Assembly: GCA_050248615.1 (NCBI GenBank) | Contig: JBFWSA010000001.1 | Location: forward strand, 36,841-100,840 | Length of the DNA stretch: 64,000 nucleotides | Reading direction: 5' to 3' | Source of the DNA: Simkaniaceae bacterium | Lineage (GTDB): Bacteria > Chlamydiota > Chlamydiia > Chlamydiales > Simkaniaceae | Part shown: positions 36,001-45,000 of the stretch, in pieces | How positions within the stretch are numbered: the stretch's first letter is position 1 | Layout of the letters: every line of letters starts with the position of its first letter | Program-made: the position numbers

Positions 36001-39000
36001 TCCCCATGTTCCCAATAGCGATGGCTCCAAGTTTTTTGGCTCTCCGACAAAGCTATTCGAATACATGGCGATGGGGAAAGGGATTGTTGCTTCAGATCTC
36101 GATCAAATTGGAGAAGTCCTTGAGCATAAGAAAACAGCTTACCTTGTCAAGCCAGGTGATCAAGAGGCTTTAGTCCAGGGACTCAAAGTGCTAATCGAGG
36201 ATCCCGACTTGCGCCAAACTTTGGGGATAAACGCCCGAGAAGAAGTCGTTAAAAATTACACCTGGAAACAACATACCCATAAAATCCTAGAAAAACTCAA
36301 AGAGCTATGTCCCTCCGCCTGATCAAACGCGCGCTGCGCCTCCCTCCCCATATTGTCTTGTTGAAACTCCTCCGTATGGCGAAAAACCGTTGGCACCAGT
36401 ATCGTCGGGAACAAAGAGACCAAAAATACCCTACCTATTCTTCCTATCAGGGGAAGCTTAGTTCTTTCGTCACTCTTCCCCATCACGTTCCTCAATATAC
36501 GAAAGATCTCCTAAGTCACTCCTTTGATTTACTCGGGAGTGGTCCTGTAGAGGTCAAATATGGGCTCAAAGCCCCAGGTCTTGAAGGACATGTCTACCCG
36601 AGTCAAGCCGCTTTACCTCTAAACAACCGGATCAACCCCAAAAATCTAGACTATGCGGAAAAAGTGTGGAGTCATCTCGATCCCGATTATACTCCCCTGG
36701 ATTGGCAAATCGATTTTAAATCAGGATACCGCTGGGAGGAAAAAACACCCAGCCATAAAATTGCTTATGGGCACCTTCCCGGAGTCGATGTCAAAGTTCC
36801 CTGGGAGCTCGCACGCATGCAGCATCTCCCCCAACTCGCCTGGGCTTATGGAGAGACTAAAGAGGAAAAATATGTGCGGGAGTTTCAAAATCAAATCCTC
36901 GATTTCATTGCCACCAATCCTCCCCGCTTTGGTGTCAACTGGAGCTGCACCATGGATGTGGGCATCCGGATAGCAAATTGGCTGATCACTTATGATTTGA
37001 TGCAATGTTACGGAGCCTCTTTCTCACCAGAATTTGAAACCTTCTTCATTTCGAGTGTCTATGATCATGGGAAGCATATCATTCACCATTTAGAATGGAT
37101 GCCGACGTTCCGAAGCAATCATTACTTAGCCAATATTGCTGGACTCCTTTTTGTAGGAGCCTATCTAAGCGGCTGTGAAGAGTGGCTAGACTTCGCTATC
37201 GCTGAGTTTATCAAAGAAGTCCCTCTCCAGTTTCATCCAGATGGCTCTTCTTTTGAAGGGTCTACAAGTTACCACTGCCTCTCTGCACAAATCGTTGCTT
37301 ATACCTCGGCTTTAGCCATCTCCGTTAAAGGAGAGCGGTGTTTTCCTCAGGAGTATTATGAACAGCTCCATAAGATGGCCCTATTTGTCCAAGATATGAC
37401 TAAACCCAATGGGGCAGTTGTCCAAATCGGCGACCATGATAGTGGCTATCTCTTCCGCCTTTTCCCCCCTTACGATCAACACCTCAATCGACAACTCTTA
37501 ATCGATGAACTCCACTTCAAAAGTCTCTATCCCCACCCCTTTCCCCTCTGCAAAGAACCCTCACACACGTTCATCTCGGGGGATTTAACTCTATTAAAAG
37601 AGACCTTTCCTAAAACACAGATTGCCTTTCCTTATAAAAAAGAAAGGATCGATTGTAGGGCTTACCCCGATTTTGGAATGTATATCTATCGTAGTCCCCA
37701 TCTCTTTCTATCAGTACGCGTCGGATCGATTGGCCATTTGGGGCGAGGAGGTCATGCCCATAACGACCAACTCAGTGTTGAACTCGTCATCGATGGAAAA
37801 GAAATTGTCGTCGATCCAGGAACCTATCTCTATACACCGCTTCCGAAAAGGAGGAATGATTATCGCTCCGTCACAGCCCATTTCGCCCCCCAAATTTTGG
37901 GGAAAGAGCCGAGTGGGATTGAATCAGGAGTGTTTATCCTAGATAGAGATCCTAAAGGAAAATGCCTCCATTTTGATCGCCACACCTTTTTAGGGATGCA
38001 TACAGGTTATGGTTTCCCCGTCTATCGTTTGATTCAGTTAGGGGATCAGATTGTCATTACTGATTATTCTACTAAAGATCCCCTTGTTCCCCTCGAAAAG
38101 GTCCTCAAACAGGTACAACAGGTCCCCTTTTCTCCCGGTTATGGAATGATTAATTATGAAAATAACAATCATTGTTGATGCTTTTCGTGCTTTTGCCACT
38201 GCATCATATGCATTAGAGAAAGACCCCCAAAATTATTACTTAACAAACTCTTGTGTATCTGTTTCTCAACTGGCCCAATCCGCTCATGATCCCCTACTTA
38301 TTGGAAAACCAGAAATCGGTTCTATACTTACCTACCACATTCCCAACTCCCCTACAAGAGTAAAGGAAACTCCTATTTTAGGAAGAGATGTGATCCATCG
38401 AACAGCAGCAGGCGCTTTAGGAATTTTAAAAGCAACCGATGCTGACCTGATCTTAGGTGCGAGTTTTGTAAATGCAGATGCAACTGCAGCCTATGTTCGC
38501 TTGTACAAAGGAGCCCAAGTAAAAATTGTTCCCATGGGACATGAGGGAACAACACCCTCATTTGAAGATGACCTCTGTGCAGAATATATTGATTCTCTCA
38601 TTAGAAATGAGTGGAAGGATCTAAGCCCATTTATCGACAAACTCAAAGATGGGCCTGGCAAGTATTTTTTTGGGGAAGATCAATGGCAATACCCCAAAGA
38701 AGACTTTGATTTGTGTATAAAAACAAGACGTTTTCCTTATGTTATTGTTGCAAAGATACAAGGAAACTACGCATGTTTAAAAAGGGTAGATGTTCAACTT
38801 CCTCAACCATATCAAGTATAAGATCCCGAATCCCACGACCTTTCCATTTAAGTGCATTAAGCTTTTGCTTTGTCATAGTATTCCAATCTTCACGACTAGT
38901 AATCTTCTTAATTTTGACCATATAATCAAAAACCGGAGTATTTAATGCAAAATGCATGGGATGAATCACAAGAACCTTAACTCCCTCTTGGAGAAGCCTT

Positions 39001-42000: not shown

Positions 42001-45000
42001 TTTTCAGTTACAAGAAGCACTTTCACGTCTAAACAAATCCTTGTATTGAGCAAAAATATGGCTCCAACAGTAAGTAGGATCGAATTTCCCCTTACTAGGC
42101 AGGTTTTGAAGTGTTTGAGCAATCACTTTTACTATTTGCTCTTCTGGAAAAAGATCAACAAGTATTCCCTTATCACCCTTCACAATTTCTGGTAAAGCTC
42201 CACTATTTCCAGCAATCACAAAAGTCCCAGCAGTCAAAGCTTCTAGAATTGAACGCCCCATTCCTTCCGAATGAATATAACGCCCCCCAGGAACTGATGT
42301 AAGAACATCTCCACTTAGTTGCATATAGACATCTGCGTTAGCAATCTCCTGGCAAGTTTTCTGATTATTTAATACCCCAAGAAATGTGACACTTCCCAAA
42401 AGATTAATTTCTTGTGCAAAAGCTTTCACTTCATCCAGCAACGGTCCGTCACCTGCTAATCTCACATTTAATGAAAAACCTAGTTTTACAAGCTCCTTTA
42501 TTATCCGGAGAAAAAGTTTATGATTTTTGTAGGGAACAAAACGAGCTGCGGAAAAGATGCGTAGCGGAGAACTCACCTTTTTTTTTCCTGATTTTAAAGC
42601 CTCGCTATTGACTCCTCCAACAGATCGAAAAAAAGAACAAGTAATGCCTAAATCACGTAGGCGACTTTCTGTATATACTGAATTTGTAATGAGTACATCT
42701 ATCGATTGATTAAGTACTTTAACCCAATAACGCTGTCTTAAAAAATGATCCAAAATATGGTTCTTGACTAAGGGAGCTTTTAAGATTTCATTTCCCCCTG
42801 TCCTATAAAGGAATAATGCATTAGGAAATTGATTTCTGATTTCCTCTAGTTCTTCAATCCAGCGCCCGCTATTAAAAAAAACAATCTCAGGATTAAAATG
42901 ATGATAGTTGATTGCCTCTCCCGTTTCTTTAAATACAAGGGTATCTCTTCCATCTTTATCTTTAGAAACCACATCTAATAATGGAAACTGTAAGTGATCT
43001 TTAAAATAATCGATAAAATACCCTCCATGCATCTCCATTCCTCCTGAAAGGGGAGGCAAACGATCTGCAAAAAATAAAATCCCTCTTTTCTTCATCGCTA
43101 CTACTCTAAAAAACCAAAAGTAAGAATGCTACAAAAGAAATTATTATTTTGTCATGCACTTAGATTGCACTGAAGGTAAGAACCCTCCTATCTGCGCATC
43201 CCAAAGAGACTTATAATGTCCATTCTTATTAAGGAGGTCTTCATGAGAACCATCTTCAATAATCTTTCCATTATCAAAAACTAAAATCCGATCCATATTC
43301 AAAAGAGTTGAAAGGCGGTGTGCAATGATGAGTGTTGTTTTTTCTTTCATCACCTCAAACAAAGTCTCTTTAATGGCTTTTTCTGTGACCGCATCTAATT
43401 GAGATGTTGCTTCATCAAGTATCAGCAGGGGAGCATTTTTTAGTAAAACTCTTGCAATAGCTACTCGCTGCCTTTCTCCTCCTGACAACTTCACACCCTG
43501 TTCCCCAATAAGCGAATGATACCCTCTTGGGAGTTGGAGAGCAAACTCATGTACATGTGCTTTTTTAGCTGCTTCAATCACTTCCTCATCTGAAGCACTC
43601 ACTCTCCCAAAGCGAATATTATCCATGAGTGTTCTGTGAAATAGGGAAGGATTTTGTGGAATCAGACCGATACAAGAGCGAAGCGTATTTTGATCAACAG
43701 ATTGAATATTTTGCCCGTCAACTAAAATCTGTCCATGAGTGACATCATAAAGACGCAAAAGCAAATTGATAAATGTCGACTTCCCACTACCCGAGTACCC
43801 CACTACCCCCACTTTCTGACCAGAGTGGATCGTCAGAGACTTATTAATAAAAAAAGGCCTATCAGGAGTATAGTGAAAACCTACCCGATCAAAAACAATT
43901 TTCCCAGCTTTTACTTTAAGTGGAGGAGCGTTTTTTTTATCAACAACTTCTACAGGTGAAAAAATAACCTTTAAAGAATGACGGCACTTTCCCCAAGCTT
44001 CATTTAGTTGATCGATCAGCTCAGTACCACTCCAAACATTCTCTGTGACATACAAGGTTGAACCTAAAATAAAAGCAAAGTCTCCAACCGTTATTAAATC
44101 AGAGATTTTAAAACGAATTAAAAAATAAATAATAAATCCAACAAGACAGGTAATAGAAAACCCCTGAAAAAAATAGAACTTAATTAAGAATCTCTCTTTT
44201 TTTTGAAACATTTCCGTCATCTGATTTAATGATTTTTTAATAAACGTTCCTTCAAAAACTCTCCTTACAAACAGCTTTACACTAGAAAAATTTGTAATAC
44301 TATCCACCACTCTTCCCGCAACATGTGATTGAGCTGTGGCCAGATCATTAGCTAAGTTTGAAATTTTTTTAGAAAATCTTAAACTCGTTAAAACAAAACA
44401 CAACGTCCAAATGAGTAGAGCCATAGAAAAAATAGGATGAATACAATACATCGTAATTAAGGCCGCTATTAACTGAGCTGCAGACCTTATCAACCGAATC
44501 GATAGATTACTTCCAATCCGCTCAAAATTTTCAGCCATAATCATGATATTATTCGCGATCGCTCCTCCAAGCGTCTCTTGAAAAAAGCGTTCTGATTGAT
44601 TATGAACCCGATCAAACAAACTTTGAATAAGATGATTCTTGATCACTGGAACTATTCTAAGATTAATGTAATTAATGACTCTCCAACAGATGTTATGCAT
44701 CTCAAAATTCATCACGACAAATATAGAAAATGCTAAAACAATTTTATTATTAATTGGCGAATCATTTAAAACATCTATTAAAATCTTAGTAAAAAAAGCA
44801 TTCAATAATCCATATATGCCTACAATTGATGCACATAGAGTTAAGGCTATAACTGATAACTTATAAGGTTTATAGAAACTCCAAAAAACCTTCCCTATAG
44901 AAGAAGGAGGTTCTTCAGCTAAAAAGTGAAATGATTTGACGGCTTCGCTCTTTCCAATCATGCTTCTCTGCAAAAGACTTATAATCTCCAGTCGACTTTA

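Follow-up and report, generated by a model that had tools for sequence, protein, structure and literature searches.

A viperin-like radical SAM enzyme in a mobile cassette of glycan-type biosynthetic genes

Introduction

Prokaryotic viperins (pVips, NCBIfam model NF038283) and the eukaryotic viperin/RSAD2 (TIGR04278) are ddhNTP synthases. What does a viperin-like radical SAM enzyme do among sugar-building genes? The question is raised by a gene (hereafter rSAM) in the window, by which we mean the whole 64,000-nucleotide stretch of a Simkaniaceae genome analysed here. The genome-wide survey's note had placed this gene in a fixed four-gene module, and had proposed that it dehydrates a nucleotide-activated sugar or acid for a surface glycan or small glycoside. 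In our analysis the genes, the scores, the CNLSCSYC motif, the G+C dip and the patchy distribution were all reproduced; the observation is thereby confirmed, and its interpretation is partly supported. The significance of the locus is that a viperin-like enzyme occurs here in a glycan-type biosynthetic cassette and not in a defence context.

Results

The rSAM gene (39458..40381, minus strand, TTG start) encodes a protein of 307 residues with a Pfam Radical_SAM domain, a CxxxCxxC motif (CNLSCSYC, residues 16-23) and a GGE motif (residues 61-63). The top NCBIfam model is viperin_w_prok (NF038283; E 1.6e-30, 106.3 bits), which aligns residues 10-299 with model positions 6-276 of 281 and is followed by MoaA (E 3.5e-14), values identical to those of the survey. 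The protein falls under both curated viperin cut-offs, with 106 bits against the 180 required by NF038283 and 32 against the 450 required by TIGR04278. Its PDB sequence matches are 9dfn (1.5e-6), 6b4c (1.7e-5) and 7n7i (2.3e-5), and in the alignment it is 18-25% identical to true pVips.

Could the gene encode an ordinary anti-phage viperin that lies beside glycan genes by chance? The pVip models do rank first in both NCBIfam and PADLOC; however, rSAM scores 106-107 bits where a true pVip scores 269-281, the triphosphate-binding residues are missing, its neighbours are shared by about 76 loci from five phyla, and no recurrent defence gene adjoins rSAM among the scanned neighbours. We consider this explanation highly improbable.

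The likeness to viperin extends to the predicted structure. In a PDB fold search with an AF2 model (pLDDT 95.3) the best 18 matches listed are all viperins or viperin-like enzymes, headed by mouse viperin with CTP (6q2p; E 9e-17, TM 0.76/0.80, 302 columns), and the next family begins at E 2e-12. The model thus indicates, for the first time, a fold that is viperin-like over the whole length, in line with the full-length resemblance claimed by the survey.

Using phmmer against 1.84 billion representatives, a gap in E-value from 1e-47 to 1e-15 was found to separate the rSAM family from all other proteins. In a tree of 47 rows, sampled solely from proteins retrieved with the rSAM query, the family and its Bacillota relatives form one clade (support 100/99). 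One unnamed protein joins this clade (93/80), the two together have the true pVips (100/98) as their sister group, and the node uniting both sides has a support of 94/90. On these sequences the family forms a well-supported sister clade to pVips, not nested in them and apparently undescribed until now; the survey's caveat had allowed for a different radical SAM subfamily.

The substrate residues of 19 family rows were compared with those of 11 true pVips, the equivalences being those of the sequence alignment. The viperin His position (human H78) is occupied by Met in 18 rows and Leu in one (10 His and one Ser in pVips), and the active-site Tyr position by Leu in 16 and Met in three (10 Tyr and one Cys in pVips). 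All 19 rows carry His in place of the Asn that follows the conserved Lys in all 11 pVips, and Lys at the viperin Glu position (10 Glu and one Ala in pVips). The position of human I303 is Asn in 18 rows and Ser in one (Met in all 11 pVips), while the Arg of the RWK motif (human R244), present in every pVip, varies in the family (four Arg, six Lys, six Cys, two Ala, one Gln). The C-terminal RxxxY is found in 8/11 pVips and in none of the 19 rows, so that the His, the Tyr and the RxxxY clamp are all missing throughout. According to a 2026 preprint, RxxxY holds the terminal phosphate in viperin and its mutation abolishes all ddhNTP formation. The sub-threshold score, the position as a sister clade and these missing residues set rSAM apart from the canonical viperins, and its active site appears to be remodelled relative to that of viperin. 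Membership of the viperin family, as claimed in the survey, therefore holds for sequence and fold but not in the strict sense.

The rSAM protein nevertheless shares with pVips and viperin a single cluster, a size within about 280-310 residues, the CxxxCxxC and GGE motifs, the Lys K164 and the WK pair (W198-K199). In 67 full-length family proteins that cover every cassette type, Y9, E35, R55, R137, K199, Y203, D212 and K243 are invariant, and K164, H166, N254 and Y282 nearly so; K243, Y203, H166, N254 and Y282 are the family's own, unlike viperin. By alignment K164, K199 and R/K56 are the counterparts of human K219, K246 and K119, with K219 and K119 described as binding phosphate. Of viperin's three core positions for phosphate binding the family keeps two (K164 and R/K at 56), as well as K199 of RWK, and for this reason a nucleotide with fewer phosphates may be the substrate.

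This retention bears on the idea that the enzyme keeps viperin chemistry and has a nucleotide as its substrate, which might be a mono- or diphosphate; the product would then be dephosphorylated, glycosylated by two GT4 enzymes and exported as an antiviral or antibiotic nucleoside analogue. The closest relatives, whether by sequence, by fold or in the tree, are viperins that use NTPs, the basic residues above match those of human viperin, and the exporters, the up to three phosphatases per cassette and the intracellular hosts would suit such a product and a polyphosphorylated starting material. On the other hand, residues needed or conserved in ddhNTP synthases (RxxxY, His, Tyr) are missing in 19/19 rows, the R244 position is variable, no nucleotide kinase or nucleobase enzyme was found in the cassette, and the cassette also occurs in gut Bacillota and Acholeplasma; we therefore regard a nucleoside analogue as unlikely.

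The genes around rSAM belong to a conserved set of glycan-type enzymes, in agreement with the non-defence context reported before. A ComB-like phosphatase (38156..38821, plus strand; 221 residues), of the 2-phosphosulfolactate phosphatase fold (Pfam 2-ph_phosp, PF04029, 76.5 bits, above cut-off), is convergent with, and overlaps by 80 nt, the gene of a WbmS-like protein (38742..39461, minus strand; 239 residues), a putative de-N-acetylase; the latter gene shares 4 nt with the stop of rSAM. The ComB equivalog models give the former only 26-45 bits against cut-offs of 175-440, so its substrate is probably other than phosphosulfolactate. The WbmS-like protein resembles WbmS of a Bordetella O-antigen locus (PF22537, 88.4 bits, above cut-off), whose structure 3hft is its sole PDB sequence match (E 3.4e-12); we know of no reaction demonstrated for WbmS itself.

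On the other side of rSAM lies GT4b (40392..42026, minus strand), a GT4 glycosyltransferase fused to a Cof-type HAD-IIB phosphatase (Pfam Glycos_transf_1 and Hydrolase_3), whose translation shows the HAD motifs DFDGT and GDGPSD. Its open frame spans 40392-42122; since homologues align only from residue 33, a GTG at 42026, the start was placed there, at the point where the survey's interval, given in window coordinates, also ends. That start overlaps by 23 nt the stop of GT4a (42004..43095, minus strand; 363 residues, NCBIfam and Pfam), a second GT4 absent from the earlier module, upstream of which an ABC exporter whose membrane and ATPase domains are fused (43144..44973, minus strand; Pfam) has the same orientation. 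Among its top PDB sequence matches GT4b has GT4s that use small acceptors, namely MshA (7qsg), BshA (2jjm/3mbo) and sucrose-phosphate synthase (6kih); each of these matches is weak (E 2e-5 to 6e-3), and both GT4s match BshA and MshA weakly and far under the NCBIfam equivalog cut-offs. A UDP-GlcNAc 2-epimerase, WecB (25016..26092, plus strand), is found about 12 kb from the ComB-like gene and in most other genomes directly adjoins the cassette; with a WecC-like enzyme of the UDP-ManNAc dehydrogenase type (23676..25019, plus strand) it would supply UDP-ManNAcA. Over 30-36 kb and 38-49 kb the G+C content is 0.32-0.40, against 0.45-0.48 over 36-38 kb and roughly 0.42-0.50 in the flanking DNA.

In about 76 foreign loci the order is [ABC exporter]-WecC-WecB-GT4a-GT4b~HAD-IIB-rSAM-WbmS-like-ComB-like, and the conserved unit is a cassette of 7-8 genes that includes GT4a, WecB and WecC and often an exporter. 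The four-gene module of the survey is kept in order, but it is only part of this unit. All ten close loci, from species-representative genomes (L001-L009, L013), have the homologues in the order of the window, with identities of 47-53% for the ComB-like protein, 55-67% for the WbmS-like protein, 36-54% for GT4~HAD and, in nine of them, 50-57% for GT4a; L009, with broken frames, has GT4a in pieces (32-51%), and L001 lacks the HAD part. Counting only loci with enough flank, some of them not independent (L012 and L074 share a contig; L036 and L037 look alike), GT4b is present in 32/32, GT4a in 24/24, HAD-IIB in 37/39 (two lack the domain), WbmS-like in 56/63, WecB in 18/19, WecC in 14/17, and ComB-like or HAD_2 in 31/39; the eight without this second phosphatase include L009, in which alignment does find a ComB-like gene. 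ABC exporter homologues adjoin the cassette in 19 foreign loci (20 with the window).

What stays constant throughout is GT4b(~HAD phosphatase) with rSAM. In the main type HAD-IIB is fused to GT4b and in the Acholeplasma type to GT4a; the fragment P0126 joins it to rSAM, and HAD_2~rSAM is a single ORF in L010; the ComB-like protein is swapped for HAD_2 in Bacillota and for PTP-like phosphatases in a variant cassette. The contigs of this variant (L048, L051, L052, L058; rSAMs 57-62% identical) carry no WecB, WecC, GT4a or WbmS, and L051, the sole variant locus read that far, has an EamA exporter, unrelated to the ABC type. Its three full-length rSAMs keep the family residues except for H303, replaced by N, and one has K164R and H166Q.

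Variant cassettes also add two PTP-like phosphatases and a small rSAM-SPASM protein, whose sole PDB sequence match is BtrN (E 8.4e-10). They could point to some other radical reaction (epimerisation, C-C formation or rearrangement, phosphate elimination from a cyclitol phosphate) in a pathway like that of mycothiol or aminoglycosides, the likeness to viperin being one of fold only. Five active-site positions fixed to non-viperin residues, that of the Tyr included, would agree with this, as would the GT4s' weak BshA and MshA matches and the arrangement of GT4, phosphatase and deacetylase, which resembles that of MshA/MshA2/MshB. However, the BtrN match is restricted to the auxiliary-cluster region (residues 200-281), the PF03162 matches of the phosphatases are weak (23-28 bits, at or below cut-off), and no aminotransferase, cyclase or inositol enzyme was found in the cassette. 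Furthermore, a search of rSAM for extra conserved cysteines gave none besides the one Fe-S motif, which speaks against a BtrN-type dehydrogenase. Such a reaction seems to us quite improbable.

The rSAM gene was found in 8/400 genomes of the order (the window's own counted, one genome unscored), in five families and at 65-73% identity, and in 0/38 other genomes of its own family, one of the same genus among them. The cassette hosts, intracellular bacteria of eukaryotes among them, are Chlamydiota, Rickettsiales, Holosporales and Myxococcota, and a rearranged form occurs in Bacillota and Acholeplasma; the rSAM copies of Paracaedibacter (70% identical) and Rickettsia (68%) lie no farther from that of the window than do the copies of other Chlamydiota (65-69%). 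Mobile-element genes (transposases, integrase, MobA relaxase or resolvase) flank the cassette in L005, L007, L039 and L067; with L051 added, the flanks hold transposases, integrase, relaxase, resolvase or ankyrin proteins. The cassette is horizontally mobile and has moved between unrelated intracellular bacteria, which bears out the survey on this point. Since the flanks in other genomes are unrelated, the O-antigen-like surroundings of the window represent one setting among many.

These surroundings (Wzx, GT4, methyltransferase, AsnB-like and heparinase-like genes) bring us to a form of the survey's proposal, in which rSAM would dehydrate a nucleotide-activated sugar or uronic acid (UDP-ManNAcA or UDP-HexNAc, for instance) and the GT4s would build the unusual sugar so formed into a surface polysaccharide, O-antigen or capsule. 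It would account for the frequent WecB and WecC and for the O-antigen origin of WbmS; the conserved R55, K164, K199 and K243 could hold a diphosphate, and radical SAM dehydratases of sugar nucleotides are known, DesII (8hzy) being among the fold matches (E 4e-9). Against it, the variants whose contigs show no WecB, WecC, GT4a or WbmS retain a nearly identical residue set, a purely nucleotide-sugar route gives no role to the one or two phosphatases of almost every cassette, and the flanks vary. Among the cassette genes and the scanned neighbours (a minority of foreign flanking ORFs), no polyprenyl-phosphate priming transferase was named, and no polymerase or chain-length gene was found to accompany the cassette. 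The idea is somewhat weakened, because the constant partner, a GT4 fused or adjacent to a HAD phosphatase, has the layout of a small-glycoside pathway and because the variants keep the rSAM residues; we hold it to be unlikely. The Wzx, GT4, methyltransferase and heparinase-like genes of the window fit a surface polysaccharide, an observation that counts against a small glycoside as product.

Discussion

A viperin cousin with an apparently rebuilt active site, lodged in a mobile sugar-building cassette, probably serves to make a small sugar compound and not an antiviral nucleotide. We propose, as a reading with about an even chance of being right, that rSAM is a viperin-sister enzyme dedicated to one step of a mobile small-glycoside cassette and not a stand-alone antiviral enzyme. 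The product would probably be a small glycoside with N-acetylmannosaminuronic acid, destined for export. Literature searches for such a cassette retrieved no account of one.

Each step of the route is deduced from which genes the cassette holds and how well they are conserved. With its one [4Fe-4S] cluster rSAM would cleave SAM to a 5'-deoxyadenosyl radical. This radical would take a hydrogen from one carbon of a substrate that is sugar-like and phosphorylated but not a nucleoside triphosphate, and the subsequent loss of a neighbouring hydroxyl or phosphate, as in viperin, DesII and AprD4, would give a deoxy or unsaturated product. By its kinship with viperin alone rSAM may be a dehydratase; as the active-site Tyr is missing, the reaction may also differ from dehydration. 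The ComB-like phosphatase would strip a phosphate from the substrate or product of rSAM. GT4b may glycosylate an acceptor that still carries a phosphate, to be removed by the fused HAD-IIB domain, a two-step scheme like those of sucrose-phosphate and GlcNAc-inositol-phosphate synthesis. GT4a could attach the N-acetylmannosaminuronic acid provided by WecB and WecC, the WbmS-like enzyme would de-N-acetylate it, and the product would leave the cytoplasm through the ABC exporter, or EamA in the variant.

DesII, AprD4 and BlsE are radical SAM sugar dehydratases of natural-product pathways, and like them rSAM is embedded among glycosyltransferases and sugar-tailoring enzymes, in contrast to pVips and viperin, and in the loci read it is not accompanied by kinases or defence genes. 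In sequence and fold these dehydratases are far more distant from rSAM than viperin is, and the BlsE model is not among its 25 best NCBIfam matches.

Two-step pathways with a glycoside-phosphate synthase and a phosphatase are represented by sucrose-phosphate synthase with SPP, MshA with MshA2 (mycothiol) and BshA with BshB. The cassette resembles them in that a GT4 is fused or adjacent to a HAD-IIB phosphatase and a deacetylase-like enzyme comes next, and in the weak sequence matches of its GT4s to MshA, BshA and sucrose-phosphate synthase. Unlike these pathways, it contains no cysteine ligase or known acceptor-forming enzyme, and it differs further by its radical SAM enzyme, its additional GT4 and its supply of UDP-ManNAcA.

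Relation of the radical SAM protein to the viperins

Viperin and the prokaryotic viperins (pVips) make 3'-deoxy-3',4'-didehydro-nucleotides (ddh-nucleotides) and protect against viruses. The genome-wide survey's note had assigned the radical SAM protein of the window (rSAM, 307 residues; with its close relatives, the family) to the viperins, and the scores behind that assignment were reproduced: the NCBIfam model viperin_w_prok (NF038283) gave 106.3 bits (E 1.6e-30, cut-off 180) with MoaA next, the Pfam assignments were the same, and the PDB sequences 9dfn, 6b4c and 7n7i matched at 1.5e-6 to 2.3e-5. 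The protein lies under both curated viperin cut-offs, since TIGR04278 gave 32 bits against 450, and the PADLOC pVip model scored it at 106.7 bits versus 269 for one true pVip. The NCBIfam scan of relatives covered 32 of 150 listed representatives, namely five other family members, for which the pVip model was the best match (73-104 bits), and the 27 nearest proteins outside the family, comprising 12 true pVips at 216-323 bits and 15 sub-threshold viperin-like proteins at 87-168 bits. A search of 1.84 billion representatives returned only 33 proteins at E <= 1e-10; the most distant of the full-length relatives has 33% identity (E ~1e-47), and beyond it the E-values jump to 1e-15. The 119 other best-listed relatives show 63-76% identity and the copies of other phyla 59-70%; in their sources the family members are named merely 'radical SAM protein', 'MoaA' or 'AlbA'. 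No longer fused form appeared at E <= 1e-20, which is weak evidence, and the ESM Atlas search with rSAM gave nothing beyond generic radical SAM clusters. In the window's genome no MoaA scored over the cut-off, the best match being the rSAM gene itself.

The AlphaFold2 model of rSAM, built from an alignment of 37 rows, reached a pLDDT of 95.3 and a pTM of 0.91. Among the PDB structures listed as fold matches, the best 18 belong without exception to viperins or to viperin-like enzymes of fungi and cnidarians, and the likeness spans the full length with the C-terminal extension as part of it; the top match is mouse viperin with CTP (6q2p_A; E 9e-17, TM 0.76/0.80, 302 columns, 18% identity); SkfB follows at 2e-12, and then DesII at 4e-9 and MoaA at 5e-9. 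The predicted fold is consequently viperin-like. In a maximum likelihood tree (47 rows with an outgroup of one MoaA and five SPASM proteins; model LG+C20 and 1000 ultrafast bootstraps) the close family forms a single clade (100/98), joins relatives from Bacillota and Acholeplasma (99/95) in a clade of 100/99 on a long stem of 0.82, and together with one further protein (93/80) is placed as sister of the true pVips (100/98) by a joint node of 94/90, in a sampling drawn from the matches of the rSAM query only and with a weakly supported root. Thus the assignment to the viperins stands as regards the fold, and not as regards membership of the pVip family, because the score is below the 180-bit cut and the clade is a sister group outside the pVips. 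Scores, fold model and tree together make rSAM part of a wider viperin-like radiation, in which the pVips are its nearest known family and do not include it.

As a side observation, seven of the 15 sub-threshold relatives (library proteins P0147, P0156-P0193) were aligned; they keep the viperin Tyr and lack the His and the RxxxY tail, and other non-canonical viperin clades may exist among these proteins.

A conserved cassette around the radical SAM gene

In the window four genes are packed on the minus strand, encoding a GT4 glycosyltransferase (GT4a, 42004-43095), a second GT4 fused to a HAD-IIB phosphatase of the Cof type (GT4b~HAD-IIB, 40392-42026), rSAM (39458-40381) and a WbmS-like protein (38742-39461), with junctions, in that order, of a 23-nt overlap, a 10-nt gap and a 4-nt overlap. 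The ComB-like gene (38156-38821) runs on the plus strand towards the WbmS-like gene and overlaps its end, and an ABC exporter gene (43144-44973) lies 48 nt upstream of the four. Genes for a UDP-ManNAc dehydrogenase-type (WecC, 23676-25019) and a UDP-GlcNAc 2-epimerase-type protein (WecB, 25016-26092) are separated from the ComB-like gene by ~12 kb holding an oxidoreductase, an AsnB-like amidotransferase, three methyltransferases, a Wzx-type flippase, a GT4 and a heparinase II/III-like gene. The fusion protein carries Glycos_transf_1 at residues 218-365 and Hydrolase_3 at 400-491 (Pfam), its HAD motifs DFDGT and GDGPSD are readable in the translation, indicating intact catalytic motifs, and the matches of its GT4b part to MshA, BshA and sucrose-phosphate synthase among PDB sequences are weak. 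The ComB-like protein remains below the ComB cut-off in NCBIfam (best equivalog score 45.4 bits against 235) and exceeds that of PF04029 in Pfam (76.5 bits against 26.4).

We compared this arrangement in 82 sources, consisting of 14 loci of species-representative genomes, 67 (L021-L087) of 79 metagenome loci and the window; rSAM was labelled in 77 of them and the neighbours were assigned to classes by BLAST comparison with reference domains. Not every locus counts as independent: a single contig underlies both L012 and L074, and L036 and L037 resemble each other. The main order is [ABC]-WecC-WecB-GT4a-GT4b~HAD-IIB-rSAM-WbmS-like-ComB-like, the last gene being convergent, while Bacillota and Acholeplasma have (HAD_2)-rSAM-WbmS-like-HAD-IIB-GT4a-GT4b-WecB-WecC; HAD_2 is fused to rSAM in L010 and HAD-IIB to GT4a in the Acholeplasma type. 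Among flank-qualified loci GT4b is present in 32/32 and GT4a in 24/24, and HAD-IIB, fused or adjacent, in 37 of 39 (missing in L001 and L056). The corresponding counts are 56/63 for the WbmS-like gene, 31/39 for a ComB-like or HAD_2 gene, 18/19 for WecB and 14/17 for WecC. The WbmS-like misses are L009, L047, L048, L051, L052, L071 and L086, of which L009 does carry the gene, in two frames. A homologue of the ABC exporter adjoins the cassette in 20 loci including the window. The association of rSAM with GT4b/HAD is obligate, and that with GT4a, WecB, WecC, the WbmS-like protein, the second phosphatase and the exporter is usual. The survey's note had described a fixed module of four genes; the conserved association is borne out, and the real unit is a cassette of 7-8 genes.

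Genes for pVips lie in defence islands, either alone or together with a nucleotide kinase gene, in agreement with the names of the PADLOC models. No kinase homologue recurs among the clustered neighbours of the 82 sources, window included, and this, with GT4b in all 32 flank-qualified loci, speaks against a defence context of the pVip type. That rSAM is a plain defence viperin is highly improbable, as very little of the evidence fits. PADLOC gave no match for the ComB-like, WbmS-like and GT4 proteins. Its call of the ABC exporter as 'mad3' (103 bits), with the best stretch at residues 492-577, we read as generic ABC ATPase regions and rejected.

A variant cassette

Four loci (L048, L051, L052 and L058) carry rSAMs 57-62% identical to that of the window in a different setting. 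The longest, L051, encodes a PTP-like phosphatase, GT4b~HAD-IIB, rSAM, a small radical SAM protein with SPASM, a second PTP-like phosphatase and an EamA exporter; L048 has a GT4b without a labelled HAD part and its contig ends ahead of any exporter. Domain scans covered these two, and L052 and L058 have ORFs of matching sizes in matching places. No WecB, WecC, GT4a, WbmS-like or ComB-like gene was seen on the four contigs. The SPASM protein has BtrN as its sole PDB sequence match (E 8.4e-10), in the auxiliary-cluster region only, and the PTP-like phosphatases match PF03162 weakly (23-28 bits). The three full-length variant rSAMs retain the invariant residues of the family except for H303, which is Asn, and one of them also carries K164R and H166Q.

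Because the variant rSAMs keep the invariant residues without the genes of the ManNAcA branch, the constant partnership is that of rSAM with GT4b(~HAD), and the ManNAcA branch is an add-on, which weakens UDP-ManNAcA as the substrate of rSAM. The dehydration of a nucleotide sugar had been proposed in the survey's note, and a nucleotide sugar made for a surface glycan is in our estimate unlikely; the usual presence of WecB and WecC in the main cassette speaks for it, and the variant, where they were not seen, speaks against it.

The active site

According to the 2026 preprint 10.64898/2026.09.10.750538, phosphate is coordinated in human viperin by K119, K219 and R244, H78 and I303 belong to the NTP site, and R346/Y350 of the C-terminal 'RxxxY' motif clamp the terminal phosphate; mutants of this motif form none of the ddhNTPs. 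The review PMC8124187 describes a conserved active-site Tyr for which a role in proton-coupled electron transfer is proposed. The equivalence of the motifs was checked by comparing a true pVip with viperin-like enzymes of known crystal structure, and the residues were then tabulated, with equivalences that rest on sequence alignment, in 19 family rows and 11 true pVips. The CxxxCxxC cysteines C16, C20 and C23 and the GGE motif G61-G62-E63 are invariant in 37/37 aligned rows. Five other positions are fixed differently in the two groups. The position of H78 is Met in 18 family rows (Leu in one) versus His in ten pVips (Ser in one); the Asn found two residues past K219 in all 11 pVips is His in all 19 family rows; a Glu of ten pVips (Ala in one) is Lys in all 19; the active-site Tyr of ten pVips (Cys in one) is Leu in 16 and Met in three; and the position of I303 is Asn in 18 and Ser in one, versus Met in all 11. 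The RxxxY tail occurs in 8/11 pVips and in 0/19 family rows. As for the other basic positions, K119 corresponds to Arg in 13, Lys in five and Ala in one family row (pVips: Lys six, Arg four, Glu one), K219 to Lys in 18 and Met in one (pVips: Lys ten, Asn one), and the Lys following R244 is kept in all 19 and all 11. R244 itself, Arg in all 11 pVips, is R4 K6 C6 A2 Q1 in the family rows and hypervariable among 67 full-length members, the six commonest letters being K18 C17 R12 S5 Y5 A4.

In these 67 members, which represent every cassette type, Y9, T13, Y22, E35, R55, N101, D125, R137, W198, K199, F200, Q202, Y203, M204, D212 and K243 are invariant, and K164, H166, N173, N254, G259 and Y282 are nearly so. 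The clade is separate and its active site rebuilt. Since the clade is strongly conserved, five active-site positions are fixed otherwise and the triphosphate clamp is gone, the substrate very likely differs from that of viperin; since some basic residues are kept and one Lys is gained, it is probably still anionic. On the side of annotation, matches to the pVip model of ~75-105 bits with M/H/K/L/N at the five positions should not be taken for antiviral viperins.

A glycosylated ddh-nucleoside as the product of the cassette would suit the viperin-like fold and the glycosyltransferases, and is decidedly unlikely with an active site so altered. The same alterations would be compatible with a different radical chemistry on a cyclitol, which we consider improbable.

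Proposed pathway

We infer that the cassette makes a small glycoside by a synthase/phosphatase route. A GT4 would act on a phosphorylated acceptor and the HAD phosphatase would strip the phosphate; a retaining GT4 paired or fused with HAD-IIB is the feature in which the cassette is alike to glycoside-phosphate synthase and HAD-IIB phosphatase systems. The glycoside would be decorated with ManN(Ac)A and then exported, and rSAM would act on the phosphorylated substrate by radical elimination or a similar reaction. We regard rSAM as a viperin scaffold recruited to a glycoside pathway. To our knowledge viperin chemistry is known so far from immunity only, in the making of chain-terminating nucleotides, and no description of this clade, of a biosynthetic viperin relative or of this gene combination was found in open-access papers and preprints. 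If rSAM is active, it would extend the viperin scaffold to biosynthesis and would point to a mannosaminuronic-acid-containing glycoside of many uncultured intracellular bacteria. With its compact size of 7-8 genes and with all enzymes but the exporter soluble, the cassette could be expressed as a whole in E. coli, which opens both product and substrate to direct tests.

Distribution and mobility

The reported distribution was obtained again: of 400 genomes of the order, 8, spread over 5 families, carry rSAM, and of 38 others in the window's own family none does. With hosts assigned by NCBI lineage, the cassette is present in four Chlamydiota loci besides the window, two of Rickettsiaceae, Candidatus Paracaedibacter (Holosporales), a metagenome-assembled genome (MAG) of ~1.1 Mb labelled Rhizobium, a Myxococcota MAG with two copies, one of them in broken frames, three loci of Clostridia and one of Acholeplasma. 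The alphaproteobacterial rSAMs (65-70% identity) are as near to that of the window as other Chlamydiota rSAMs are (65-69%). The flanks of L005, L007, L039 and L067 contain transposases, a phage-type integrase with a MobA/MobL relaxase, or a resolvase, and ankyrin-repeat genes adjoin the cassette in L051 and L067. The cassette has moved across phyla.

A more far-reaching reading, which we consider quite improbable, is that the exported product is a ddh-type nucleoside bearing a sugar, or some other sugar analogue that terminates chains. It would then be a secreted small-molecule offshoot of viperin immunity, traded among the symbionts that live inside cells of protists and arthropods (Chlamydiota, Rickettsiales, Holosporales) and directed against host-cell viruses or competing microbes; if true, it would provide a chemical basis of symbiont-mediated protection.

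DNA near-identical to some part of the window's cassette occurs in 20 sequencing runs from 15 studies; 19 of the runs contain half or more of the sampled words, and four of the runs may be the source sample. They comprise metagenomes from landfill, hot springs, freshwater, sludge and wastewater, and one RNA run of a coded organism. The RNA-library run X20 yielded contigs of 258-516 nt on the rSAM, GT4b, GT4a and ABC genes, which we do not count as proof of transcription because DNA can occur in such libraries. X20 and the run X5 have stretches without cover at 30-38 kb.

The two copies in the Myxococcota MAG are L003 and L009; in L009 the reading frames of rSAM, GT4a, GT4b~HAD and the WbmS-like gene are broken up, so that this copy is probably decaying. 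The genome size of the record labelled Rhizobium sp. Q54 (L002) is odd for Rhizobium and points to a mislabelled bin or to a symbiont with a reduced genome.

Further features of the glycan locus

The low-G+C stretch reported for this locus was recovered at ~30-49 kb, interrupted at 36-38 kb by a short rise in G+C. Within the stretch the heparinase II/III-like gene (36307-38178; Hepar_II_III_N and _C), between a GT4 gene at 34730-36322 and the ComB-like gene, has a G+C of ~0.46, and its composition suggests an origin different from that of its neighbours. Two ORFs at the edges of the locus, 22318-23649 (443 residues) and 46209-47144 (311 residues), matched no Pfam family. Between a GumK-like glycosyltransferase gene and the latter ORF lies a 33-nt inverted repeat (46119-46195; 94% complementary, 11-nt loop). 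In two DNA runs several contigs start or break at 46120-46156, where a 36-nt record has a depth of 90, and the element may be a dispersed palindromic repeat rather than a mere terminator. An imperfect 60-nt inverted repeat (48999-49160; 77% complementary, 42 nt between the arms) is found where the low-G+C stretch ends on the right, immediately ahead of a ROK-family gene.
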